Shown piece after piece: positions 2,163 to 12,607 of a stretch of 14,566 nt of DNA. The notes under the pieces were generated by a model. That model worked only from the letters and a program-made list of their open reading frames with translations. It was not told the DNA's origin and searched no databases. The DNA comes from Elusimicrobiota bacterium (lineage in GTDB: Bacteria > Elusimicrobiota > Elusimicrobia > JACQJN01), in contig JACQJN010000215.1 of NCBI GenBank assembly GCA_016205085.1, positions 1-14,566 of the forward strand. The letters run 5' to 3'. The first letter of the stretch is position 1. Every line of letters begins with the position of its first letter. Both the position numbers and the translations under genes were made by a program.

Positions 2163-2933
2163 CTAGGCGTAGGCGTGCAGGCCGCTCAAGAGGTAGTTGA
2201 CGCCGAAGTAGGTAAAAACCACAAATACAAATCCAGCGATCGCCAGCCACGCAAATCGCTCATTTTTCCAACCTCGAGTGCGTCTCAAATGAATGGCTAT
2301 CGCGTAGAATAACCAGGTCACCAGGGCCCATGTTTCTTTAGGATCCCAGGACCAGTACGTTCCCCAGGCCGAGTTGGCCCAGACAGCCCCGGTGATGATC
2401 CCCAATGCCAAAAACCAAAATCCCACCTGTATGGCCCGATACAGAAACTCATCCAAATGGGCTCCTCGAAATTTCCAATAAACGACCCCTCCCAGAAACC
2501 CCAGGGATAGAGCCGCGTAGCCTATCATGGTTGTGATCACATGGATGAGAAGCCAGTTGGATTGAAGCGCAGGGACCAGAGGAGCCACCCCCGAATCCAG
2601 AAAAGAGGTCACCCCTAAACTCAAAACGAGAAATAAGGAAAGCGCGGGGACCAACCCCTGAAGAGGAAATTTAGAAAAAAAATAGAACAAGACAAACAGG
2701 GTGAGCACGGTCCACAGAAGAAACATCATGGACTCATACTGATTAGAGAGAGGCGCGTGCCCGGAGGCCCGCCAAAGCAAAAGCAGGTGCAGGGATATCT
2801 CCAGCCAGCTTAAAAAAAGAGCAACGAAGACCCAGCGGTTGAAGGAGGGTTTTTTCAAAAGATAACCCGCCACATAGGTTCCCAAGGCCAATAGGGAAAA
2901 TCCAAAAGCAAATTGAAATGCAATTTGTATCAT
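2163..2933 (-). CDS. ccsA: Cytochrome c biogenesis System II heme-handling protein CcsA/ResC (WWD-domain family)
   Basis: Tryptophan-rich WWD signature WGTYWSWDPKETWALVTWLFYAIAIH with flanking conserved His residues and a C-terminal SGLHAY. The protein is polytopic. I placed the start at the internal Met (ATG 2931-2933) because it forms an ATGA overlap with the ccsB stop. The longest ORF extends to 2993 and would overlap ccsB by 64 nt. Confidence 0.8.
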   Translation of the reverse strand: MIQIAFQFAFGFSLLALGTYVAGYLLKKPSFNRWVFVALFLSWLEISLHLLLLWRASGHAPLSNQYESMMFLLWTVLTLFVLFYFFSKFPLQGLVPALSLFLVLSLGVTSFLDSGVAPLVPALQSNWLLIHVITTMIGYAALSLGFLGGVVYWKFRGAHLDEFLYRAIQVGFWFLALGIITGAVWANSAWGTYWSWDPKETWALVTWLFYAIAIHLRRTRGWKNERFAWLAIAGFVFVVFTYFGVNYLLSGLHAYA

Positions 2934-3952
2934 CGCCAAAAAGACCAAGCCAACCCCAGCATGAGAAGAATAAATCCCGTGTATATCACCCAAACACTGG
3001 GATCCTTCACTATCTGAATGCTGGAAAAATTCATATTTTTAGGGTCATACCCCGACTGGTAAAGCCGGTAGCCCTGATAACTCATGGGGGAGTTGACCGA
3101 AATGGTCTGCTTCGTTCCCGGCCCCTGGGTATCTGTGATTTCCAAATCGCTCTCAAACTGGCGGACACGCCCCGGAACGTACTCATAGACCAGACGAAAG
3201 GGCCGTCCCACATCTCCGTGAAAGTCCGGAAATCTGGAAAACACGAACTGCCGCACCGATCCATGTCCATTTTGGACGGACAGCTCCCAGGCCGGGTTCT
3301 CCCGGGCCTCGCTGCGTGATACGGGAGACTTTCCCTCCAAAGCAAACTCGGGATAAAACCGAATCGGCAACACCTTCAAATTTAGGAATTTAAACTCCGC
3401 GATTTGATTCTGAACTAACTCCGCCGATGCATGCTGCCCTGGAGAATCTCCATAAACCACATGCAAAATATGCTTCTCCTGTTCCCAGTAATGGATGCGA
3501 AACGCCTTCAGTTTTATGGAAAAGGGAAGCGAAATCTCCTCATAGCCGTCATTGATATACCCGGACCATACCTGGTCCACATTCATAGGCAAATGGCCCT
3601 TTTGCCCATAGACCCCCCGGATGATGCCCCCCGCAAACAAAAGCAGAATTGCGGCGTGGGAAATAAAAACCCCAGGTCTGACTAAAAGCGCTTTATACCG
3701 CTTTAGAGAGCAAGCCAATAGATTGATTCCGGACAAACCCAACAGCCCCAAAAACCAATAGCTTTTAAAAAGATTATTCCATCCCAAACTCAGGATGAAT
3801 GAAGCCACGGTGCGACCATACGTCTGATGGTATTCTTCCGGGGATTCCCCCTGAGGAACAATCCCCCCTAAAGCACAGGCCAGAAGCAAGCATCCTGCAC
3901 AGATGAAGAAAAATCGGATGGAGGCTAGTTGATCCAGCAGCTTTCTTGCCAT
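2930..3952 (-). CDS. ccsB: Cytochrome c biogenesis System II protein CcsB/ResB family (compact, 340 aa)
   Basis: ResB-like N-terminus (LASIRFFFICAGCLLLACALGGIVPQG) followed by TM helices with a His (FISHAAILLLFAGG). A large hydrophilic periplasmic domain and a C-terminal TM (VWVIYTGFILLMLGLAWSFW) complete the ResB layout. It lies immediately upstream of ccsA with an ATGA stop/start overlap. Confidence 0.72.
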   Translation of the reverse strand: MARKLLDQLASIRFFFICAGCLLLACALGGIVPQGESPEEYHQTYGRTVASFILSLGWNNLFKSYWFLGLLGLSGINLLACSLKRYKALLVRPGVFISHAAILLLFAGGIIRGVYGQKGHLPMNVDQVWSGYINDGYEEISLPFSIKLKAFRIHYWEQEKHILHVVYGDSPGQHASAELVQNQIAEFKFLNLKVLPIRFYPEFALEGKSPVSRSEARENPAWELSVQNGHGSVRQFVFSRFPDFHGDVGRPFRLVYEYVPGRVRQFESDLEITDTQGPGTKQTISVNSPMSYQGYRLYQSGYDPKNMNFSSIQIVKDPSVWVIYTGFILLMLGLAWSFWR

Positions 3953-3956
3953 AAAT

Positions 3957-4421
3957 CTATTTTAATGTGACCTCCTCAAACAATTTCTTCAGTTTCTGCT
4001 GCTGAATCTGGAATTCCTCTTTTTTCATGGCTTTTCTGATCTCGGAATCATAGACCAGAAACTCGATGATATGATCTTCATCCAACTTTTCCAAAGTTAT
4101 TCCACGACCTTCCATTTTAAGGTGCATCCTGTGGACGAACCGCCTCCAGGCGGATTCTTCTATGATGGGAGAATTCAATGCGCGAGCCGGGGCGTGGCAA
4201 GCACCGCAAGCCGTCAGGAAGAGCTTATAGTTTTCCTGCTGTCTTTGGGGATAGCCAGATACGTCCACCGTAGAAGCACCTAAGTCATAAAAAAACCTAG
4301 GGGCCGGACTGGCTGGGCCTTCTCTGCCAGACTCCATCGGAACCGGTGCTTTTCCATTACTAGAACATCCCTCCAGAACCCCCGCAATCATAAAAGCCGA
4401 TAGAAGATGCCGGATTTTCAT
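3957..4421 (-). CDS. Monoheme c-type cytochrome, probably a lipoprotein (ActE-like position in the CISM/ACIII-like module)
   Basis: Start placed at the internal Met (MKIRHLLSAFMIAGVLEGCSS...), which gives a signal peptide ending in a Cys (lipobox-like LEGC). There is a single CGACH heme-binding motif. The ATG at 4419-4421 overlaps the stop of the upstream NrfD-like gene as ATGA. The longer ORF to 4760 has a low-complexity N-terminus and would overlap the upstream gene by 343 nt. Confidence 0.6.
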   Translation of the reverse strand: MKIRHLLSAFMIAGVLEGCSSNGKAPVPMESGREGPASPAPRFFYDLGASTVDVSGYPQRQQENYKLFLTACGACHAPARALNSPIIEESAWRRFVHRMHLKMEGRGITLEKLDEDHIIEFLVYDSEIRKAMKKEEFQIQQQKLKKLFEEVTLK

Positions 4422-5992
4422 GATGCTGGAAAATAGGTCCGGATTCTTTCCGAAACCTCCTCCTCTGCATGCTCTTTTCCCTCCCTCACCTCCCAAATGG
4501 AAACGATGGGGAAAAGCCTCGTAAAAACTGTGTAAAGCAGGGCAAAAGCTGCCAAGCATCCTGCAAAAAGAGAAATCTCCACCCAACTCGGTGAGTAGGA
4601 GCCGACCGTGTAGGGCAGACGAGGCCGAACCAATGTGGGAACTACAATCAGAAACCTCTCCAACCACATCCCCACACACACAAAAGCGGAGGCGGCAACC
4701 GTTCCTCCCACCGTTTTTCCCAGACGCGACGCTAAAACCAGAAAGGGAAAGACAAAACAAGTCAGTGCCATGGTCCAGAAGTGAAAAGAATATCTTCCGG
4801 AAAGCTTGGAAAAGAAGATCAGCATATGGTCCGGCTCATGGCCGTACCAGACCGTAATATACTCGCAAAACGTGAAATAAAGCCACAAACAGCTCATCAC
4901 CAGCAAAAGAGTGCCCAGGTACTGGAAATGGATGGGCCTTAGATATTCTTGGAGACCGTAGGCCTTTCTCAAGACGGCCATAGCGATGATCAGGGCGGCA
5001 ATCCCGGAAAATATGGCTCCCACCACGAAATATGGACCAAATATCGTTGAATGCCACATCGGCTGGACCGTCATGCTGAACACATACGAAACCACCGTGT
5101 GCACTGAAATGGCGACGGGGATGACGACGATCGCCATGATGGCAATACACTTTTCCAAAATCCGCACCTCCTCCGGAGCGCCCGTCCAGCCCAGGGAAAG
5201 CAGTTCATAGAAATCCCTGCGCCAGCCCTGGACATGGTCCCGGAGAATAGCTATGTCCGGAATAAGGGGAATGTACAGGTAGATGCTGCTGGCCGTCAGG
5301 TAGGCGGTGATGCTGCAAACGTCCCAGAGAAGGGGGGATTCATATCTCCCATATAAGAACACATTCAACATCCGGTCGGGGCGGCCCAGATCGAGAAGAA
5401 TATTGGCCGCCCCGAAGAAAAGGACCATCACCGTAATCACCTCGGCCGAGCGGGTAATCGGCCTGCGCCACTCGGCATTGGCAATTCTTAATATGGCTGA
5501 GATCAAAGTCCCCGCATGAGAAATGCCTATGAAAAAGACAAAATTGGTGATGTAAAATCCCCAGAAGACCGGGTTGCCCAACCCAGTGACCTGAAGACCC
5601 CGAAAGACCTGTTGACTCCAGGCAAAAAGCGCCCAGAGGGAGACGGAAACCAGAATTCCCACAAACAACAGAAATCCTTTTCCAGGAGGATTGAGAATGG
5701 GCGCGATCAGAGCGGACTCCGTCTTCGAGATCGGGACAGGCTCGGTAACCCCTGCCTTTTTTTCTTTGACGGCCACGGTATAAAAAAGGAATGTGAGAAC
5801 GGCTGAAAAGAGGATAAAGAGGGGGCCCACAAGGCACCCGATGACTGCTCCGGCCATCCAGTTGTCTCCTAAATCACGAAGTTTTTGAATGCGCCACAGA
5901 AACCAGCCGTTGACCGCAAGAGTAAAAGCGTAGAAGGCCAGGAGACCGCAGACTTGAACATAAAACGCCCAACCCTTTCTTTTCATGGTCAC
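4418..5992 (-). CDS. NrfD/PsrC/ActC-family integral membrane quinone-interacting subunit (about 12 predicted TM helices)
   Basis: I count about 12 hydrophobic helices by eye: a 10-TM NrfD-like core with motifs such as HAGTLISAIL...ANAEWRRP, plus two extra N-terminal helices. The GTG at 5990-5992 overlaps the FeS-subunit stop (GTGA). An ATG two codons downstream (5984-5986) sits 10 nt after a GGGAGGGGG Shine-Dalgarno and is an equally plausible start. Confidence 0.8.
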   Translation of the reverse strand: MTMKRKGWAFYVQVCGLLAFYAFTLAVNGWFLWRIQKLRDLGDNWMAGAVIGCLVGPLFILFSAVLTFLFYTVAVKEKKAGVTEPVPISKTESALIAPILNPPGKGFLLFVGILVSVSLWALFAWSQQVFRGLQVTGLGNPVFWGFYITNFVFFIGISHAGTLISAILRIANAEWRRPITRSAEVITVMVLFFGAANILLDLGRPDRMLNVFLYGRYESPLLWDVCSITAYLTASSIYLYIPLIPDIAILRDHVQGWRRDFYELLSLGWTGAPEEVRILEKCIAIMAIVVIPVAISVHTVVSYVFSMTVQPMWHSTIFGPYFVVGAIFSGIAALIIAMAVLRKAYGLQEYLRPIHFQYLGTLLLVMSCLWLYFTFCEYITVWYGHEPDHMLIFFSKLSGRYSFHFWTMALTCFVFPFLVLASRLGKTVGGTVAASAFVCVGMWLERFLIVVPTLVRPRLPYTVGSYSPSWVEISLFAGCLAAFALLYTVFTRLFPIVSIWEVREGKEHAEEEVSERIRTYFPAS

Positions 5993-6696
5993 ACCCCCTC
6001 CCTTAGATAGGTGACCTTGGGCTCGGTGCCCAATTCCTCCAAAAGGTGAAACGCGCGAGGGTCTTTGCAGAGCCTTGAGACGTCACTTTCGGAATCGTTC
6101 AGATCGCCGAACACAATCGCCTTGGCAGGGCAAACCTCCGCGCATGCCGGCTGGTAATCCCCCTCCTGTAGGTTCCGCCCCTGCGCCACAGCTTCTTCCT
6201 TGGCGCGTTGAAGGCGGTGATGGCAGAAAAGGCATTTTTCAACGACCCCATTCGGCCTTACCGAAACGCTGGGATTGAACGAAGATCGCATTTCATCGGG
6301 CCAGAGTGGCTTCTTCCAGTTGAAGAATTTGCAGGTGTAGGGACAGGCATTCAAGCAATACCGGCATCCGATGCATCGCGAGTACACCTGACCCACAATA
6401 CCCTCCTCGTTTTTGAAGGTGGCATAGACGGGACAGACCTTGATACAGGGAGGATTTTCACACTGCTGGCAAGGCATGGGGATCAAGTTCTGACGCACAT
6501 GCGAACCCTCCACCTCCGTTTTGGGAAGAATCTTCAACCAACGGATGACCCTGCCCATCGCAGCTTCCTCAGGGCTCCCCAGCATCTGGTTGTTCTCGAC
6601 CGAGCAGGCCACCACGCAAGCACCGCACCCCGTGCATTTGTCGAGATCCACAACCATTCCCCAGCGGTGCTGCCCCTTTCTGCGACTCTCTTCCAT
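5989..6696 (-). CDS. Four-cluster 4Fe-4S ferredoxin-type electron-transfer subunit (PsrB/NrfC/HybA/ActB2-like)
   Basis: N-terminus WGMVVDLDKCTGCGACVVAC. Four Cys clusters are present: CxxCxxCxxxC, CQQCENPPCIKVCP, CIGCRYCLNACP and CLFCHH...CAEVCP. It has no signal peptide of its own, consistent with TAT hitch-hiking on the adjacent MopB subunit. It starts 4 nt after the MopB stop. Confidence 0.85.
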   Translation of the reverse strand: MEESRRKGQHRWGMVVDLDKCTGCGACVVACSVENNQMLGSPEEAAMGRVIRWLKILPKTEVEGSHVRQNLIPMPCQQCENPPCIKVCPVYATFKNEEGIVGQVYSRCIGCRYCLNACPYTCKFFNWKKPLWPDEMRSSFNPSVSVRPNGVVEKCLFCHHRLQRAKEEAVAQGRNLQEGDYQPACAEVCPAKAIVFGDLNDSESDVSRLCKDPRAFHLLEELGTEPKVTYLREGV

Positions 6697-6700
6697 GGCG

Positions 6701-8710
6701 TTATGCTTTCATGAGACGACACCTGCCGCCGCGAAATTGCGGATCGACCCCGTCTCCCTCGGCGATCTCCAAGGGGTTGGCTCCCAATCCCTTGGCCCAT
6801 CTCCCATAAGCCGTGTGCCCCAACCCCACCGGAACACTCACCACATCCGGCATGGTCCAGGGTACGAGGCGCGCCTTGACCTGAATTTTTCCTCTCCTGG
6901 ACTCCACCCATACCCTGTCTCCATCGACGATGCCGTATTTTCGGGCGGTGTCAGGATGAATTTCCGCCCATGTTCCCCACGTTTCCTGAGCCTGCGGTCC
7001 CGCGACGCTTTGGAGATAGGGAAGATGGGCTCCCTCTCCGCGGAAAAAAGCAAGGGGGGTGAAGAGATATAGGAAAAGCGGAAATTCCGCGTCCCCTTTC
7101 AGCTCCGGCACCCGATGTTTAAGAGCATCCACCAAGGGGCTGAATCTAAATCGTTCCAACATCTTCCCGCTCTTCGGGATCTCCATCCACCGGACTTCCC
7201 CCTCCGGTTCCAGAAGACTCTCACCCTTGAGCTCTTTCGCCCTGATCTTATGATAGGATTGGAATTCACCCAGGGCCGGAGCCGCTCCTTCAACAACTCG
7301 TTTTAATAGAAGGAAAATTTCTCCAGGATCCTTCGTGTCGTAGAGAGGCTCCACGGCCCGTGGGCTGGCATTTAAAACGGATTTTCCATCTATTGTGGAA
7401 TGCTGGGACAGGTGGAGCTGCTCTAAAGGCGTATGGCAAGGAAGTACAATGTCCGAAATCTCGGCTGTCTCGGTCATGTGGGGCGAAACAGTGACGATGA
7501 ACGGCACATTTTCCAGTACGGACTTCCACTGGCCCGACCCAAAAAAAACGGGATTTACACGATCCACAATCATCACTTGAGGCGCCGCTTTCCTGAACCG
7601 CTCCGCGCTCTCCTCCCGTTTCTCCAAGCCGCCCACCGTCCAAACCGTTTCTTCGCTTCCCATGCTGCCCAGAATCATATTCAGGGCGGAAACCGCCATT
7701 CGGTTGAAAATAAAATCAGACCCCATAATGGCTGCGGCCGGTTTCAAATGAATAAATTTCAGAAGGAGAAGCTTGATCTCTTTCTCCGGAATTTGAGTCC
7801 ATCGGGACACCCGTTCCAGAGACAACATTTCCACAGCTCTTTTAAATTCCTCGAACCCATCCGTATGGCCTTGGATATAAGCCTTGCCGTAACTTCCGTT
7901 CACAATGAGCTCCCGCGCCAGCCACAAAGCCAGTACTCCTTCCGTCCCGGGCCGGATGGGCATCCACTCATCCGCCTTGGCGGCCGTCACGGAAAACCGC
8001 GGCTCGATCTGAACGACGTGGGTTCGTTGCCTGCCGGGCCACCGCCGAAGTTTGGCAAAAGCCCTCTGAGCCTCCACGGGTGAAGGATGAGTCTGGAGCC
8101 AATCGAATCCAAAAGAAACAAGAAGTCGGATCCGGTCCAAATCCCAAAATGTCCGCGGGCTAGACTCCAAGGTCACAAAATTCCCCTCACCCACTGAACC
8201 GGCCAGCCCCTTTAAAGCTTCCTGATGCACGTCCTTGGGTTCTCCGGGAGTCAGGAGCGCCAAAGGCCGTTTCACTTTTTCTAGATTTGCCTTGGATATC
8301 CTTCCCGCGATCCGGCGCACAGCTTCCTCCCAAGAGATCGCAGTCCACCTCCCCGCGCCCCGAGGACCTTCGCGCACCAGCGGGCCACGAAGACGGTCCG
8401 GATGGTACAACTCCTGAAGGACGGCGGCTCCTTTAGGACAAAGGCTTCCTTGATTGATAGGATGATCCTGAGTCCCTGAAATTCCCACCGCGCGGCCATC
8501 CATCTTGCGTACGCGGATGCCGCAGCCGGCCGGACACATGCCGCATATCCCCTGAACGAATGTCTCCTTGCCTGGTTGAGGCAATGGTGTCTCTCTGGGC
8601 TTAAGGACAGTTTCCCTGGCCCAGGAAGGCAGCACAGAGCCCGCTCCCAATAGGCCGGCCAACTTCAGAAAGGCTCGTCTCGATATCTCCATATTACAGG
8701 TGGCACGCAA
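6701..8710 (-). CDS. TAT-exported molybdopterin-oxidoreductase (Mo-bisPGD/MopB) family catalytic-type subunit, PsrA/PhsA/ActB1/QrcB-like (669 aa)
   Basis: Twin-arginine signal (MEISRRAFLKLAGLLGAGSVLPSWA). A canonical FS0 [4Fe-4S] motif CGMCPAGCG-x27-CPKG (CX2CX3CX27C) is present. The MopB core signature VVQIEPRFSVTAAKADEWMPIRPGTEGVLALWLAREL is also present. The alternative start MEISRR... at 8692 would leave a 1-nt gap to the upstream gene instead of a 17-nt overlap. Confidence 0.8.
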   Translation of the reverse strand: MRATCNMEISRRAFLKLAGLLGAGSVLPSWARETVLKPRETPLPQPGKETFVQGICGMCPAGCGIRVRKMDGRAVGISGTQDHPINQGSLCPKGAAVLQELYHPDRLRGPLVREGPRGAGRWTAISWEEAVRRIAGRISKANLEKVKRPLALLTPGEPKDVHQEALKGLAGSVGEGNFVTLESSPRTFWDLDRIRLLVSFGFDWLQTHPSPVEAQRAFAKLRRWPGRQRTHVVQIEPRFSVTAAKADEWMPIRPGTEGVLALWLARELIVNGSYGKAYIQGHTDGFEEFKRAVEMLSLERVSRWTQIPEKEIKLLLLKFIHLKPAAAIMGSDFIFNRMAVSALNMILGSMGSEETVWTVGGLEKREESAERFRKAAPQVMIVDRVNPVFFGSGQWKSVLENVPFIVTVSPHMTETAEISDIVLPCHTPLEQLHLSQHSTIDGKSVLNASPRAVEPLYDTKDPGEIFLLLKRVVEGAAPALGEFQSYHKIRAKELKGESLLEPEGEVRWMEIPKSGKMLERFRFSPLVDALKHRVPELKGDAEFPLFLYLFTPLAFFRGEGAHLPYLQSVAGPQAQETWGTWAEIHPDTARKYGIVDGDRVWVESRRGKIQVKARLVPWTMPDVVSVPVGLGHTAYGRWAKGLGANPLEIAEGDGVDPQFRGGRCRLMKA

Positions 8711-9194
8711 GACAATCGTTTGTGACTTTCCTTCTCCTATGACAATCCATACAACGCTCCATCTTGATGGGAATCACCTGACGGGTGACGGGAACCTCCC
8801 TTTTGGACATATCCCCGTGGCATACGGCGCAATCGAGCTTGGCGATACCCACATGGCGCCTATGGGAAAAGTAGACGTGCTGCGGAACACGGTAAATCTG
8901 GTTCCAAGGTATCTCTCTATTTTCCAGGATGTAGGCCTGGACGACTTTTAATTTGGGATTGTCCGTATCCTGGTTGTGGCAGGAAGCGCAGGTTTCCAAG
9001 GGCGGGAGAGTCGCATGAACACCTCCCTCCGCAATACCGGCATGACAATTGGCGCACTCCAGGCCCAGTTCGATGTGTTTTTTATGGTTATACGGGACGG
9101 GCTGCTTCTTGGAGTCTGACTGGTGCCAGGCCAAAAGGAACCAGACTGAACCAAGCAAAACAAGGGATAAAACGGCTGCCGCAAGATCTTTCAT
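8694..9194 (-). CDS. Membrane-anchored pentaheme c-type cytochrome (ActA/QrcA-like electron entry/exit subunit)
   Basis: N-terminal hydrophobic signal-anchor (AAAVLSLVLLGSVWFLLAW). Five CxxCH motifs (CANCH, CASCH, CAVCH, CMDCH, CLACH) lie within 166 aa. GGGGAGGAG sits immediately upstream of the ATG. Confidence 0.75.
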   Translation of the reverse strand: MKDLAAAVLSLVLLGSVWFLLAWHQSDSKKQPVPYNHKKHIELGLECANCHAGIAEGGVHATLPPLETCASCHNQDTDNPKLKVVQAYILENREIPWNQIYRVPQHVYFSHRRHVGIAKLDCAVCHGDMSKREVPVTRQVIPIKMERCMDCHRRRKVTNDCLACHL

Positions 9195-9215: not shown

Positions 9216-10097
9216 TTACTTCTGCGGGGTTTTGGGCGGCGCACCCGCAAATTCCTTTGCCAAGGCTGTGACGCCGGACATCGCTCCCAAACCCATGGTC
9301 TCCACGGCGCTGGAGGGAACGATCACGATGGTGGAATTTTGCCGCATTCCTTCCAGTAGAATATTCATCGCACGCAAATGCAGAGCAATGGGACTATTCA
9401 CGTAGGCCTTAGAAGATTCTTCGAACACCTGTGAAACCTGCCGTTCTGAATCTGCCAGGATCACCCTTGCCTGACGCTCCCTCTCCGCCTGCGCCTGCAT
9501 GGACATGGCATTCTGAAGGCCGGCCGGTATTTTCACGTCGCGGATCTCCACAGAAATGGCTTTAATGCCCCAGGCTTCCGTCCGTTGATCAATCATAGCG
9601 CAAAGATCCTTATCGATCTTCTCCCGGCCTCTGAGCATTTCCGAGAGATCGGTTCTTCCGATCACATCCCGCAGAGCGGTTTGACTGGACCATGTAATAG
9701 CCTGCCGGTAATCCTCCACTTCCACAGCTGCCTTCTTCGAATCCACGACCCGCCAGAAGAGAACCGCATCCACATCCACAGGCACGCTGTCTTTGGTGAG
9801 GGTCTGCTCCGCAGTGAAGGGAGTCGTTATCGTACGCAGATCTATCCAATAAGGGATGGTGTCCACGAAAGGAATGACGCCAAAAACTCCTGGACCCTTC
9901 AAATCAAGATATTTTCCAAGCCGAAGAATCACCGCTTTTTGCCATTGGCGTGCAACGCGGATGGCCAGAACGAATAAGACAGCCAAGGCTGAGACTGCAA
10001 CTCCAAGGGCTGGATTCTCAAGCTTGACGCCCAAGAAGCCTCCTGCGGTCATCATCACGACAAACACCACCGCTGTCACAGGATGAATTCCCATCAT
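9216..10097 (-). CDS. SPFH/band-7 (stomatin/prohibitin-like, slipin) membrane scaffold protein
   Basis: N-terminal TM helix followed by a PHB-domain-like sequence (AVILRLGKYLDLKGPGVFGVIPFVDTIPYWIDLRTITTPF...AVLFWRVVD...). A coiled-coil-like AQAERERQARVILADSERQ segment follows. A GGAGG RBS lies 4-7 nt upstream of the ATG. Confidence 0.85.
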   Translation of the reverse strand: MMGIHPVTAVVFVVMMTAGGFLGVKLENPALGVAVSALAVLFVLAIRVARQWQKAVILRLGKYLDLKGPGVFGVIPFVDTIPYWIDLRTITTPFTAEQTLTKDSVPVDVDAVLFWRVVDSKKAAVEVEDYRQAITWSSQTALRDVIGRTDLSEMLRGREKIDKDLCAMIDQRTEAWGIKAISVEIRDVKIPAGLQNAMSMQAQAERERQARVILADSERQVSQVFEESSKAYVNSPIALHLRAMNILLEGMRQNSTIVIVPSSAVETMGLGAMSGVTALAKEFAGAPPKTPQK

Positions 10098-10197: not shown

Positions 10198-11433
10198 TTA
10201 TTTTTTCACGGCTAGAGACAATATATAGGCCGTCAACGCGTGAATCTCATCGTCCCGAAGCTCCAGTTTGGGCATTGTGGAACCCGGGCTTACCATTTGA
10301 GGATCTCGGAAATGTTTAGTAAGCCACTCCTCCGCTTTCTCGCCGGCCACCTTATCCAAAGCGGGTCCAACCGCACCCCCCTTTCCATTGATCTTATGAC
10401 AATAGCCACAATTTAAGTTGCGGTACAATCTCCGACCCGTAAAAACTACCGGGTTCTTTTCAGCGACAGAAGTCAAGGGCGAACCAGTGTATTTCTGAGC
10501 GGTGATGTAGCGGGCGATATCCTCTATCTGCGTGTCGGTCAACTGGCCTTTATACCCCGGCATCGTAGAGGACGAGTTGAGTTGGGAAGGATCCAGAATA
10601 TATTTTTTGATGTAGGCTTTGTCGCGGGCCGAACCGATGAGGGAAAGATCAGGCCCCACATCCCCACCTTCCCCACCTATACGGTGACAAGCCGTACAGT
10701 TAGCCGCAAAAAGCTTAGGTGCCTCGCCGGTGAAGGGTCCTCCCGCCAAAGACTTCATGTAGGCCGCCAGGGCTTGAATCTCATCTTCCAAAAGATTAAG
10801 TTTAGGCATATCCGACCCCGGGCGGGGGTCTCTAAGATGGCCGATGAGCCACTCCTCCGTTTCCTCACCCACAACCTTATCGAGTTCAGGGCCGATGGAG
10901 CCGCCCTTTCCCGCAATCTTGTGACAGTAAGCGCAATTCAAACTCCTATACAGCCTGTGCCCCGCCAGGACCAGAGGGTCCTTCTCAATGACAGGATTGG
11001 TGAGAGGGCTCTTGTAGCCCGCCCAGGTGAGATAGGTGATGCCGGCCAGAGCCAAAACTCCCAAACCGGTCCAGAGAGGCCGGTCCAAAGGATGGCGCCT
11101 GGAATCTTTATCCAAAAAGGGCAAAAGAAGCAGAAAAGAGACGGCCAACCCCGGAAGTAGGATGGCCGCGACGGCTTCCAGATGGCCGGGAAAGAACTTG
11201 AGCGCCTGAAAAAGAAACAAAAAGTACCACTCCGGACGGGGATTATAGGTCGTATCCGTGGGATCGGCCAATTCCTCAAGTTTCACCCCAAACTTGTATG
11301 CCAGGAATGAAAGAGCGCACAGGATAAGAAAAGTAACCAACGTGTCCTTGAAGACCGCATAGGGGAAAAATGGTTTGCCCTCCTCCTTCAAACGAATGTA
11401 GCGCTTCTTATATTCCTCGTACCAATTTTGCAT
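10198..11433 (-). CDS. qcrC: bc-complex subunit IV (PetD-like, 3 TM, PEWYFLFLFQ motif) fused to three tandem class-I cytochrome c domains (QcrC-like triheme variant)
   Basis: PEWYF motif and three TM helices are followed by three CxxCH domains (CAYCHKIAGKGGSIGP, CTACHRIGGEGGDVGP, CGYCHKINGKGGAVGP). Start chosen at the internal Met (MQNWYEEY...; ATG 11431-11433), 2 nt after the cytochrome b6 stop. The longer ORF to 11679 would overlap cytochrome b by 244 nt. Confidence 0.75.
   Translation of the reverse strand: MQNWYEEYKKRYIRLKEEGKPFFPYAVFKDTLVTFLILCALSFLAYKFGVKLEELADPTDTTYNPRPEWYFLFLFQALKFFPGHLEAVAAILLPGLAVSFLLLLPFLDKDSRRHPLDRPLWTGLGVLALAGITYLTWAGYKSPLTNPVIEKDPLVLAGHRLYRSLNCAYCHKIAGKGGSIGPELDKVVGEETEEWLIGHLRDPRPGSDMPKLNLLEDEIQALAAYMKSLAGGPFTGEAPKLFAANCTACHRIGGEGGDVGPDLSLIGSARDKAYIKKYILDPSQLNSSSTMPGYKGQLTDTQIEDIARYITAQKYTGSPLTSVAEKNPVVFTGRRLYRNLNCGYCHKINGKGGAVGPALDKVAGEKAEEWLTKHFRDPQMVSPGSTMPKLELRDDEIHALTAYILSLAVKK
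10207..10974 (-). repeat. Intragenic duplication: cytochrome c domain 1 (about 10744-10974) and domain 3 (about 10207-10449) of the subunit-IV-triheme fusion are close paralogous copies
   Basis: The protein segments align at about 60% identity by eye (GHRLYRSLNCAYCHKIAGKGGSIGPELDKV.../GRRLYRNLNCGYCHKINGKGGAVGPALDKV...). Shared DNA strings are visible, including tgaatctcatc, agccactcctccg and ccaccttatc. The middle domain is more divergent. Confidence 0.5.
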
Positions 11434-11435
11434 TT

Positions 11436-12104
11436 CTAACGCTTTTTTTGAGGAACCTCTGAAATCCCATGCCATACCACAAGAAAAAGATGCGCTCCTA
11501 TCAAAAGACCGATCACCATTGGCAAAACTAAAACGTGCAGCGCATAAAACCGGGTCAGAGTAGCCGCTCCCATATCCTCCCCACCTATAAGGATCTTGGA
11601 AATATAAGCCCCCAAAATCGGTGTTTGGCCCGCGATGTTGGCCCCCACCATGGTGGCCCAGTAAGCCTTCTGATCCCAAGGCAATAGATACCCTGTAAAA
11701 CTAAATCCCATCACCAATAAAAATAAAAAGACCCCGACGATCCATGTGGCTTCACGTGGATACTTATACGCCCCCATAAAGTACACCCTCAGCATATGCA
11801 GGGATACCAATACCACCATGAACGTGGCTCCCCAGTGATGCAATCCGCGAATCAGCCACCCCAATAGAACTTGCTCGCTGATGAACCGCACGGAATCATA
11901 GGCATGATCCGGGGAAGGAACATAGTTCATGGCCAAGAGCGCTCCCGTCACCGCCTGAACCATAAATACGAAAAGGGACGCGCTCCCCAATGTATAAAAC
12001 CAGGCAACAGGACCCTTGGCTTCGGGAATGTGCCGGGCAAAGAGAGCCTGCCACACCTTCTGGAATCCGGTCCTCTCATCCAGCCAAGCAAGAATGTTCT
12101 TCAT
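11436..12104 (-). CDS. qcrB: Cytochrome b6-type (split cytochrome b, N-terminal 4-helix heme-b-binding half)
   Basis: Strong cytochrome b6 signatures: GWLIRGLHHWGA, LPWDQKAYWA, TLTRFYALH and C-terminal WHGISEVP. Start placed at the internal Met MKNILAWLDERTGF (ATG 12102-12104), which forms an ATGA overlap with the Rieske stop. Confidence 0.85.
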   Translation of the reverse strand: MKNILAWLDERTGFQKVWQALFARHIPEAKGPVAWFYTLGSASLFVFMVQAVTGALLAMNYVPSPDHAYDSVRFISEQVLLGWLIRGLHHWGATFMVVLVSLHMLRVYFMGAYKYPREATWIVGVFLFLLVMGFSFTGYLLPWDQKAYWATMVGANIAGQTPILGAYISKILIGGEDMGAATLTRFYALHVLVLPMVIGLLIGAHLFLVVWHGISEVPQKKR

Positions 12105-12607
12105 GCTTTCTCCTGATGCACGGGCTGAGGTAAAATCAAAAGCTGCCCTCCCACCACTTTTACCAGAAAGCGGTCCAAAGGCCTGGGTGGCGGGCCACTC
12201 ACCACCTTCCCATCCACATCGAAGACGGCGGTATGACAGGGACAAAGAAACTGCTTCTTCTGTTCATCCCAGCGGTAAGGGCAGCCTAGGTGGGTGCAAC
12301 GAGGATCGAAGACGATAAAATCCTTCCCGTTAGAGGTGAGAATCCAGGCCGAGGACCTGCGCTCCGTTGTCACCCAGGCATCCCGTTTGCGCTCCACAAA
12401 CTCCACTTTTATGGGAAGCCCCGGCTTAAAATTGTCGGCCCGCCCGATATCCAACCAGCCTTCCTCCTTTTTCTTGAAAGCCGGAGATATGAAATAACCC
12501 AGGCCGGCACCCCCCAGAATGGCGCCGATGAGGCCGCCCAGTCCGAATATGGCCCACTGCAGAAAAGAACGCCTGGAAATCGTGCTGTCAGGGCTGGGGT
12601 GTTCCAT
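12101..12607 (-). CDS. qcrA: Rieske [2Fe-2S] iron-sulfur protein with TAT signal
   Basis: TAT motif SRRSFLQ plus a TM anchor. Rieske box I CTHLGC and box II CPCH are separated by about 15 residues. Confidence 0.85.
   Translation of the reverse strand: MEHPSPDSTISRRSFLQWAIFGLGGLIGAILGGAGLGYFISPAFKKKEEGWLDIGRADNFKPGLPIKVEFVERKRDAWVTTERRSSAWILTSNGKDFIVFDPRCTHLGCPYRWDEQKKQFLCPCHTAVFDVDGKVVSGPPPRPLDRFLVKVVGGQLLILPQPVHQEKA

Follow-up and report, generated by a model that had tools for sequence, protein, structure and literature searches.

A widespread, uncharacterized variant of the alternative complex III/Qrc family encoded by five genes of a groundwater Elusimicrobia bacterium

Alternative complex III (ACIII) and the Qrc complex are understood to originate from molybdoenzymes, and their characterized members stand as end-points: the B1 part is empty, a [3Fe-4S] centre takes the place of a [4Fe-4S] one, and membrane subunits have been added. 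In the structure of the R. marinus ACIII, B1 has no prosthetic group, and Sousa et al. pointed out that the iron-sulfur (FeS) branch terminates close to the surface and could be of use to an external partner (PMC5928083). The QrcB subunit of D. vulgaris is described as being without redox cofactors (PMC13059093). A split ActB is a documented variant of ACIII (PMC9386147). Kato et al. (2015) reported actAB1B2CDEF clusters of iron oxidizers in which the split actB1 has exactly the motif CX2CX3CX27C (PMC4643136), and a further paper, citing Refojo 2013, gives an actAB1B2CDE arrangement for Nitrospirales, with a split ActB and without ActF or ActG (PMC12342949). In 521 ActC sequences the residues of the half-channels and of the quinol site were found to be >95% conserved (Calisto & Pereira; PMC8076601, Table 2). 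A conserved Glu122 of ActD is the partner of ActC Asp169. Here we describe a five-gene module encoding relatives of these complexes. It lies on a contig of an uncultured groundwater Elusimicrobia bacterium (GenBank assembly GCA_016205085.1, contig JACQJN010000215.1) that was analysed over its whole length of 14,566 bp, called the window below.

The five genes are on the minus strand, as is every long open reading frame (ORF) of the contig, and have the coordinates given in an earlier note made from the sequence alone. They encode, in order, a pentaheme cytochrome c, a MopB protein with a twin-arginine translocation (Tat) signal, a four-cluster FeS protein, an NrfD-family membrane protein and a monoheme cytochrome c; this is the order that the note had described. 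The junctions measure, in gene order, 1, 4, -4 (GTGA) and -4 (ATGA) nt, which is consistent with translational coupling, and since the same order recurs in other metagenome-assembled genomes (MAGs) the arrangement is not due to chance. The public annotation (locus tags HY400_) is generic ('cytochrome c3 family protein', 'molybdopterin-dependent oxidoreductase', '4Fe-4S dicluster domain-containing protein', 'hypothetical protein'). Comparison of the predicted proteins with known ones indicates that the module probably encodes a membrane-anchored member of the ACIII/Qrc lineage that faces the periplasm and links the (mena)quinone pool to the c-type cytochromes there. For MopB, the relatives compared came from 41 fetched loci (designated by L numbers below) and 120 database homologs, and conservation was read from a 57-sequence alignment.

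The membrane subunit (524 aa; 4418–5992) is an ActC-like quinone/proton subunit of the NrfD family, for which a hydropathy scan indicated 11–12 helices, ten of them ActC-like and two N-terminal. Against solved structures it scored 241 bits with 6f0k_C (E 3e-70) and 235 bits with 6btm_C, while ActF chains gave 29–58 bits; its identity to PsrC types was 23–25%. The residues that form the half-channels of ActC were identical in the query at 13 of the 13 N-side positions and at four of the six P-side ones. Used as controls for the N-side channel, the NrfD protein of the alphaproteobacterial locus L035 matched at 5/13 positions, PsrC types at 2–3/13 and ActF at 3–4/13. The quinone site reads D201/S219/D224/V304 in the query and H139/S164/D169/D253 in ActC. 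Two of these four positions are changed throughout the clade (His139 to Asp201; Asp253 to Val304, with Val or Ile in the clade). The spacing of D201/S219/D224 (18+5) equals that of D106/S124/D129 in DsrP1 (18+5), and that of D120/S138/E142 in QrcD is 18+4. Among NCBIfam models, DsrP (118 bits) scored above QrcD (43 bits), whose cut-off of 570 was missed.

The two additional helices belong to an N-terminal extension of ~95 residues (5708–5992) that ActC lacks and that is confined to the closest clade: it is present in the query, L031 and L032, and NrfD homologs of 522–523 aa are encoded in L039 and L040. The extension was considered as a fused ActD and rejected, there being no sequence similarity and, within the membrane, no Glu that would correspond to Glu122 of ActD. 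Probes of ActD and ActF from L032 found no match in the window at E<=1e-4, and the window holds a single NrfD gene. The earlier note had presented the single membrane subunit, with ActD and ActF missing, as a departure from ACIII. The absence is real, although not new, since split variants without ActF and ActG are on record (PMC12342949).

The pentaheme cytochrome (166 aa; 8694–9194) is ActA/QrcA-like and has an N-terminal membrane anchor of one transmembrane (TM) helix and five CXXCH motifs (9042–9056, 8976–8990, 8817–8831, 8739–8753 and 8700–8714). It matched ActA chains of solved structures with 82–100 bits (best, 6lod_A, 100 bits, E 1e-27; 6f0k_A, 89.5 bits), while the NCBIfam QrcA model gave 91.8 bits and was missed at its cut-off of 180. 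The FeS subunit (235 aa; 5989–6696) is ActB2/QrcC-like, lacks a signal peptide and contains 16 Cys in four groups of four. Its score with the ActB2 domain of 6f0k_B (residues 795–1023) was 198 bits, as compared with 131 for ArrB and 92 for PsrB; the QrcC model of NCBIfam gave 289 bits and missed its cut-off of 400. The third group of Cys reads CIGCRYC in the query, as against C(I/V)GT(R/K)YC in R. marinus and all fused ACIII. In the alignment, C111 (codon 6364–6366) takes the place of the Thr found in the [3Fe-4S] site of R. marinus and fused ACIII. This Thr replaces the second Cys of the group in every fused ACIII and in an unfused Chloroflexi type, and the Cys is kept in the clade of the query, in L006, L037 and L035, and in catalytic enzymes. 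With four full Cys4 groups, the FeS subunit is predicted to bind four [4Fe-4S] clusters, and the complex is predicted to hold these four plus the FS0 cluster of MopB, unlike ACIII and Qrc.

The MopB subunit (6701–8692; 663 aa from Met7, in an ORF of 669 aa that extends to 8710) is ActB1-like and contains the Pfam domains Molybdop_Fe4S4 (PF04879), Molybdopterin (PF00384) and Molydop_binding (PF01568). Its start is most likely Met7, as favoured by the gene spacing and by the public record MBI4051971.1, which begins at this residue (ATG at 8692), one base past the pentaheme stop codon. The translation shows a twin-arginine motif, SRRAFLK (8663–8683), which the Pfam TAT_signal model matches weakly (E 0.01); the RRxFLK consensus is conserved in the 57-sequence alignment. 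By sequence, the solved structures ranked ArrA (120 bits), PsrA (114) and then solved ActB (30–41), and in NCBIfam both QrcB (225 bits; cut-off 440) and PhsA (201 bits; cut-off 694) were missed. An AlphaFold2 model (predicted local distance difference test score, 87.4) had the complete four-domain MopB fold. Classification by structure was rejected as uninformative, since Foldseek separated neither ArrA (TM-score 0.77) nor PsrA (0.76) nor ActB (0.69–0.72). Of the classification by profiles and structure that the earlier note had proposed, the profile part thus gave QrcA, QrcB and QrcC as the best NCBIfam models, all below cut-off, and the structural part did not place MopB.

The FS0 [4Fe-4S] motif of MopB, C56GMC59PAGC63-x27-C91 followed by P-K-G (8438–8545), has the spacing CX2CX3CX27C. 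Its four Cys are invariant in the 57 aligned relatives, and FS0 was found in all the full-length proteins of the top 120 matches, the apparent exceptions being proteins that were truncated, had been given a wrong start or, in one case, had a longer spacer. One candidate for an FS0-less near relative, P0036, was rejected because its start is mis-called. The earlier note had held that FS0 is kept here and lost in ActB1 and QrcB. This is so for the four solved ActBs, which have no Cys at any FS0 position, and for D. vulgaris QrcB (PMC13059093), but not for the iron-oxidizer ActB1 or for seven uncharacterized fused ActBs (L002, L007, L009, L020, L027, L029 and L030) that keep all four Cys. Their loci encode ActC and a second NrfD paralog throughout, and ActA and ActD were detected in most. 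Loss of FS0 is therefore not a general property of ACIII. The note had added that retention by ActB1 or QrcB would make the feature uninformative, and the seven fused ActBs take part of its weight away. FS0 retention is neither unique nor unreported, though absent from the characterized systems. As the loci were fetched by similarity to the query, these proportions are not population estimates. The separation of the MopB and FeS genes, also put forward in the note as a distinguishing feature, is likewise real and likewise not new, split actB1 genes having been published (PMC4643136).

Whether MopB could hold molybdenum was judged from the alignments. After residue 182 (junction at 8159–8170), the query lacks 16 residues that in relatives contain the Mo-ligand Cys and a helix. 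At the ligand position L035 has SICADGSPIAHYLTQG, within the wider segment HSSICADGSPIAHYLTQG, and the Arr/Psr-like enzymes of Desulfobacterota have SHS(A/S)(L/I)CAEAEKFG. L031, the nearest homolog, still has a version of the segment, FPKSEFPSDAYERMHG; across the clade of the query the segment is variable and has no Cys. No conserved Cys, Ser or Asp replaces the ligand in that region of the 57-sequence alignment, and the only Cys of MopB outside FS0 are C5 (before Met7), C425 and C664. About 100 further residues found in catalytic relatives are also missing. The alignment of the Mo ligand that the earlier note had called for thus showed the ligand segment to be absent and the pterin-lining motifs to be retained; the Mo site itself is almost certainly lost. 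TorD/NarJ-type chaperone genes, which are common but not universal in operons of Psr/Phs/Ttr/Arr-type enzymes, adjoin the genes of all the Cys-bearing relatives and that of a ~790-aa planctomycete protein (L037). With trimmed probes none was found in the window at E<=1, nor in nine probed loci without the ligand Cys from the MopB-tree group that includes the query clade, and no PF02613 gene is listed inside the module of L038–L041. A weak TorD match in the window disappeared when trimmed probes were used and was rejected; it was probably an alternative-frame translation of homologous nrfD 3' ends.

These data bear on the suggestion of the earlier note that the module might be a true molybdoenzyme, that is, a genuine Mo/W-bis(pyranopterin guanine dinucleotide) (bisPGD) enzyme of the Psr/Phs/Ttr/Arr kind that recruited pentaheme and monoheme partners, with catalysis in MopB fed by FS0. 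The retained FS0 Cys and the Lys that follows them, the ArrA and PsrA matches that come first by both sequence and fold, and the four [4Fe-4S] sites of the FeS subunit, as in true complex iron-sulfur molybdoenzymes (CISMs), are what such an enzyme would show; moreover, L037 combines the same pentaheme with a TorD-type chaperone, and L035 keeps the ligand Cys. This explanation is nevertheless quite unlikely because the ligand-bearing loop and helix are deleted in the query, and Cys-less in the clade, and because no chaperone gene was found with the module, either in the window or in the clade loci probed; in addition, ~100 other residues are missing and the tree groups MopB with ActB1, which is cofactor-free in the solved complex (PMC5928083). 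The L037 MopB is itself without the ligand Cys (GNGSAGSDG at the ligand position), its chaperone gene (10436–11122) following the NrfD gene; it may represent a state between the catalytic and the Mo-free forms.

In a neighbour-joining tree of MopB (699 columns, 100 bootstraps), from which the solved ActB1 and QrcB were absent, the query grouped with L031 (bootstrap 94) within an Elusimicrobia clade (bootstrap 100). This clade fell in a group with bootstrap 100 together with the B1 parts of the seven fused ActBs, the unfused Chloroflexi type, a Geobacter-type and an acidobacterial protein. L037, which is chaperone-linked, and L035, which is Cys-bearing, branched outside this group through weakly supported nodes, and Arr/Psr-like enzymes formed the outgroup. 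The Desulfobacterota loci were considered as genuine Qrc and rejected: they are Cys-bearing, chaperone-linked MopB-FeS-NrfD enzymes without QrcA. Together with the scores for ActC (241 bits), ActB2 (198) and ActA (100) chains, this placement bears out the ACIII/Qrc logic that the earlier note had seen in the gene order. It also rules out an ordinary PsrA/PhsA, and so bears on the view that the genes form an ordinary PsrABC/PhsABC-type operon with unrelated cytochromes as bystanders. For this view there are the PhsA score of MopB and the generic public annotation. The PhsA score, however, was far under its cut-off and under the QrcB score; the pentaheme gene, whose product is an ActA homolog, lies directly upstream of MopB across four phyla; the membrane subunit is of ActC type and not of PsrC type; and the ligand Cys is absent. 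The ordinary-operon view is already refuted by these comparisons.

The nearest MopB homolog in the first search, L031, was 52% identical, a figure that understates the collection, since the entry of the query itself was missing from that search and its 90%-cluster representative (P0139) is a 341-aa fragment.

The last gene of the module (3957–4421) encodes a monoheme c-type cytochrome of 154 aa whose ATG, at 4421, overlaps the nrfD stop codon (ATGA); the start is this ATG and not that of a 267-aa ORF. The protein has one heme motif (CGACH, 4194–4208) and a signal peptide ending in LEGC (4365–4376), a slightly atypical lipobox that fits the monoheme family and makes a lipoprotein probable. Seventeen members of this family were found, those with names being all from Elusimicrobia MAGs; CxxCH and Met99 are invariant, and homologs adjoin the module in L031, L036, L001 and L040. 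Pfam, NCBIfam and PDB yielded no sequence relative, ActE included. A resemblance to ActE was also sought by fold search and rejected, no significant neighbour being found among PDB chains. The earlier note had treated the protein as the counterpart of ActE; the label is one of analogy, not of homology.

A reduced ACIII that acts as characterized ACIII does would oxidise menaquinol at the ActC-like subunit and pass electrons through ActA and the monoheme protein to cytochrome c or terminal reductases, in parallel to Rieske/cytochrome b. The strong homology to ActA, ActB2 and ActC and the complete N-side half-channel agree with this account, as do the documented split-ActB and ActF-less variants of ACIII (PMC4643136, PMC12342949), the annotation of ACIII, from a DMSO-reductase tree, in lineage IV in a study of other genomes of groundwater Elusimicrobia (10.1101/765248), and the position of the L039 module just upstream of narGHJI and a cytochrome c gene. 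It is possible but doubtful: two of the four quinol-site residues that are >95% conserved in ActC are replaced clade-wide, a [4Fe-4S] site stands where ACIII has its hallmark [3Fe-4S] one, neither ActD nor ActF is present and the monoheme protein shows no homology to ActE. Further, a complete fused ACIII adjoins the module in L032, which argues against a redundant function.

In the ACIII/Qrc-lineage complex that we favour, a quinone or quinol would react in the NrfD subunit, at its P-side pocket (Asp201/Ser219/Asp224), and protons would be exchanged with the cytoplasm through the conserved N-side channel, so that turnover would be electrogenic. Electrons would pass between the pocket and the proximal [4Fe-4S] cluster, and then to the pentaheme cytochrome, the monoheme lipoprotein and other periplasmic multiheme cytochromes. 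MopB would be a Mo-free scaffold that leaves through Tat and carries along the FeS subunit, which has no signal of its own, and FS0 would lengthen the [4Fe-4S] side branch to five clusters. As to direction, the quinone site of DsrP/QrcD type and the dedicated quinol oxidisers often encoded nearby (Rieske/cytochrome b, true ACIII, NapC/NrfH, NarI) tip the balance very slightly towards a Qrc-like reduction of menaquinone by cytochrome c over an ACIII-like oxidation of quinol. Cluster type is no indicator here since QrcC and ActB2 both have a [3Fe-4S] centre. It is also conceivable, though rather unlikely, that the FS0-retaining clade is an undescribed, functionally distinct class with two working electron outlets, a heme wire and a five-cluster FeS wire ending at FS0, in which MopB would have a ligand-less Mo/W-pterin or another redox site, or would dock an as yet unknown periplasmic partner. 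Should this be so, the clade would be a living intermediate between catalytic CISMs and cofactor-less quinone:cytochrome c machines, and could explain the enigmatic 'dead-end' FeS wire of ACIII structures.

Several points weigh against the favoured interpretation. MopB is slightly nearer to ArrA and PsrA than to solved ActB1, both by sequence and by fold. Several of its pterin-lining motifs (ADxW..PGT[DE], D-x-VLP..LE, GH and, following the fourth Cys of FS0, a Lys) show no variation within the family, which also speaks for the Mo/W enzyme considered above. Arsenite oxidase contains a Mo-bisPGD without a protein ligand to the metal, and MopB may likewise bind a ligand-less Mo/W-bisPGD; since the motifs stay invariant, the chance that a Mo/W-pterin is retained is not zero, although we take it to be small. 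The MopB tree was made by neighbour-joining and its deep nodes are weak (bootstrap 11–39), and the placement relative to Qrc comes from hidden Markov model scores. The direction of electron flow is deduced from weak correlates in a clade known from sequence alone: the pairing with quinol oxidisers was seen in the window, in L031 and in L032, whereas L036 and L041 lack it, which makes for a weak lean.

The unfused pentaheme-MopB-FeS-NrfD unit was found in at least four phyla (Elusimicrobia, Chloroflexi/Anaerolineae, Acidobacteria and Planctomycetota), the pentaheme gene being always immediately upstream of the MopB gene; across Elusimicrobia the synteny is preserved. More than 1,000 relatives of MopB are present in public data, and homologs, in this case of MopB only, were also found in MAGs of Omnitrophica, Rokubacteria and Armatimonadetes. 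The earlier note had offered, as an alternative to a molybdoenzyme, an evolutionary intermediate, and the distribution of character states fits this: the clade joins ancestral CISM traits (FS0, all-[4Fe-4S] clusters, unfused genes and one membrane subunit) to derived ACIII traits (ActA and the ActC channel), and is plausibly such an intermediate.

The surroundings of the module vary among relatives. In another Elusimicrobia MAG, L039 (1644–3205, 14589–21980), a cytochrome c gene and narGHJI come directly after it, which may point to a functional connection with nitrate/nitrite metabolism, and MobA-like and MoaC/MoCF genes lie at a distance of a few kb; in L040, NapC/NrfH-type and multiheme cytochromes are found near it. 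One or two extra cytochrome-FeS-NrfD modules without MopB stand in tandem in L031 (1–3797, 13033–16671), L039 (6598–9378) and L041 (2350–4832, 6701–9466), so that close relatives stack several NrfD-type quinone modules in one island. The Geobacter-type locus L034 (5478–9493) encodes an ActA-like pentaheme, a 732-aa FS0-containing MopB (JGI label QrcB-like) and a 410-aa cytochrome, with no FeS or NrfD gene, and may represent a side branch of the family that is soluble or anchored in another way.

Along the minus strand, the contig carries a multiheme cytochrome, a pentaheme cytochrome, a Rieske protein, a split cytochrome b and an SPFH/Band-7 protein, then the five-gene module, and then ResB, CcsA and FeoB. 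The Rieske complex (10198–12607), identified with Pfam and NCBIfam and with the motif CTHLGC-x14-CPCH, includes a cytochrome b6-type protein and a subunit IV-like C-terminal part of the split cytochrome b (10198–11433) that is fused to three monoheme cytochrome c domains, an architecture also seen in L031. The earlier note had placed a Rieske/cytochrome b complex next to the module, in a single transcript, with two links between quinones and cytochrome c. The adjoining complex is there; co-transcription is inferred from gene spacing, and a scan of the window for promoters and terminators gave counts at chance level, which neither support nor oppose internal transcript boundaries. Since this linkage was seen in the window and in one of the eight other clade loci examined (L031), the two links describe these two loci and not the family.

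Immediately upstream of the module, 9216–10097 encodes a stomatin-like membrane protein of the SPFH/Band-7 family (Pfam Band_7, E 1.7e-35). Genes of this type stand next to or within the cluster in L031 (6565–7458), L036 (6528–7430), L037 (11119–12093), L039 (5701–6591) and L041 (5761–6693), covering both Elusimicrobia and Planctomycetota. From this recurrence, the protein would seem to be a partner of the complex, acting as a scaffold or in quality control, and its gene no mere spacer. On the other side, 4 nt after the monoheme gene, lie the ResB/CcsA genes of system II cytochrome c maturation (2163–3952; Pfam ResB, Cytochrom_C_asm); L031 and L037 likewise have ResB behind the cluster. The multiheme cytochrome gene at the end of the contig (13366–14566) is partial, its frame being open upstream of the listed ATG; the additional part contains CYLCH and CLGCH, giving at least 11 hemes, and the L031 homolog has 583 aa and 13 CXXCH motifs. 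No Moco biosynthesis genes were found on this contig, to which the search was confined.

Genes that are annotated only as 'molybdopterin-dependent oxidoreductase' can be misread in reconstructions from groundwater MAGs as sulfur, arsenic or nitrate reductases. Beyond this, the clade mixes in one complex ancestral FS0 and all-[4Fe-4S] traits, a DsrP/QrcD-type quinone site and a complete ActC proton half-channel. It makes approachable the role of the FeS side-wire of ACIII, the residues that set the direction of NrfD quinone chemistry and the order in which ACIII gained its characters. In the literature searched, the proximal [4Fe-4S] site, the combination of an Asp-Ser-Asp site with a 13/13 channel, the N-terminal extension, the clade-specific monoheme protein and the linked SPFH gene were unreported.

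Compared with the ACIII of R. marinus, F. johnsoniae, Roseiflexus and Chloroflexus (6F0K, 6BTM, 6LOD, 8K9E), the module shares a membrane-anchored pentaheme ActA, Tat export, a periplasmic part made of MopB-like and four-cluster FeS proteins, a 10-TM-helix ActC-type subunit with all 13 N-side half-channel residues and, by analogy, a probable monoheme lipoprotein. Unlike ACIII, it has B1 and B2 as separate genes (4-nt gap) and the FS0 Cys. Its proximal site is Cys4 instead of Cys3 plus Thr, and its quinol site Asp/Ser/Asp/Val instead of His/Ser/Asp/Asp. ActD, ActF and ActG are missing, the ActC-like subunit has two extra N-terminal helices, and the monoheme protein shows no homology to ActE. 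The clusters of iron oxidizers (PMC4643136) and Nitrospirales (PMC12342949), compared by description only, share with it the split actB1/actB2 and, in the iron oxidizers, the same FS0 motif, but keep ActD and ActE, and the iron oxidizers ActF too.

With the QrcABCD of D. vulgaris the module has in common a multiheme cytochrome c, MopB-like and FeS subunits and a single 10-TM-helix NrfD subunit with an Asp...Ser...acidic quinone triad. The periplasmic quinone site and N-side proton uptake would also be alike, and Qrc models were the best NCBIfam matches for three of its subunits. Unlike Qrc, it has four Cys4 sites and five hemes, where Qrc reportedly, in the 2010 work of Venceslau, has a [3Fe-4S] centre and a hexaheme QrcA. 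It also misses all four equivalog cut-offs and conserves FS0, whereas QrcB is reported to lack redox cofactors (PMC13059093). PsrABC and ArrAB (2VPW, 6CZ7) and L035 resemble it in the Tat-exported MopB with FS0, the unfused 4x[4Fe-4S] subunit and the one NrfD-family anchor, and L035 has the same quinone site, Asp/Ser/Asp/(Val/Ile). They differ from it in that the module has no Mo-ligand segment and no chaperone, and has obligate pentaheme and monoheme partners and an ActC-type proton channel. As it departs in defining points from ACIII ([3Fe-4S] centre, quinol site, ActD/ActF, cofactor-less B1), from Qrc (all four equivalog cut-offs) and from catalytic CISMs (Mo ligand), the module is filed as a member of none of them but as an uncharacterized variant of the ACIII/Qrc lineage, and one that is widespread.

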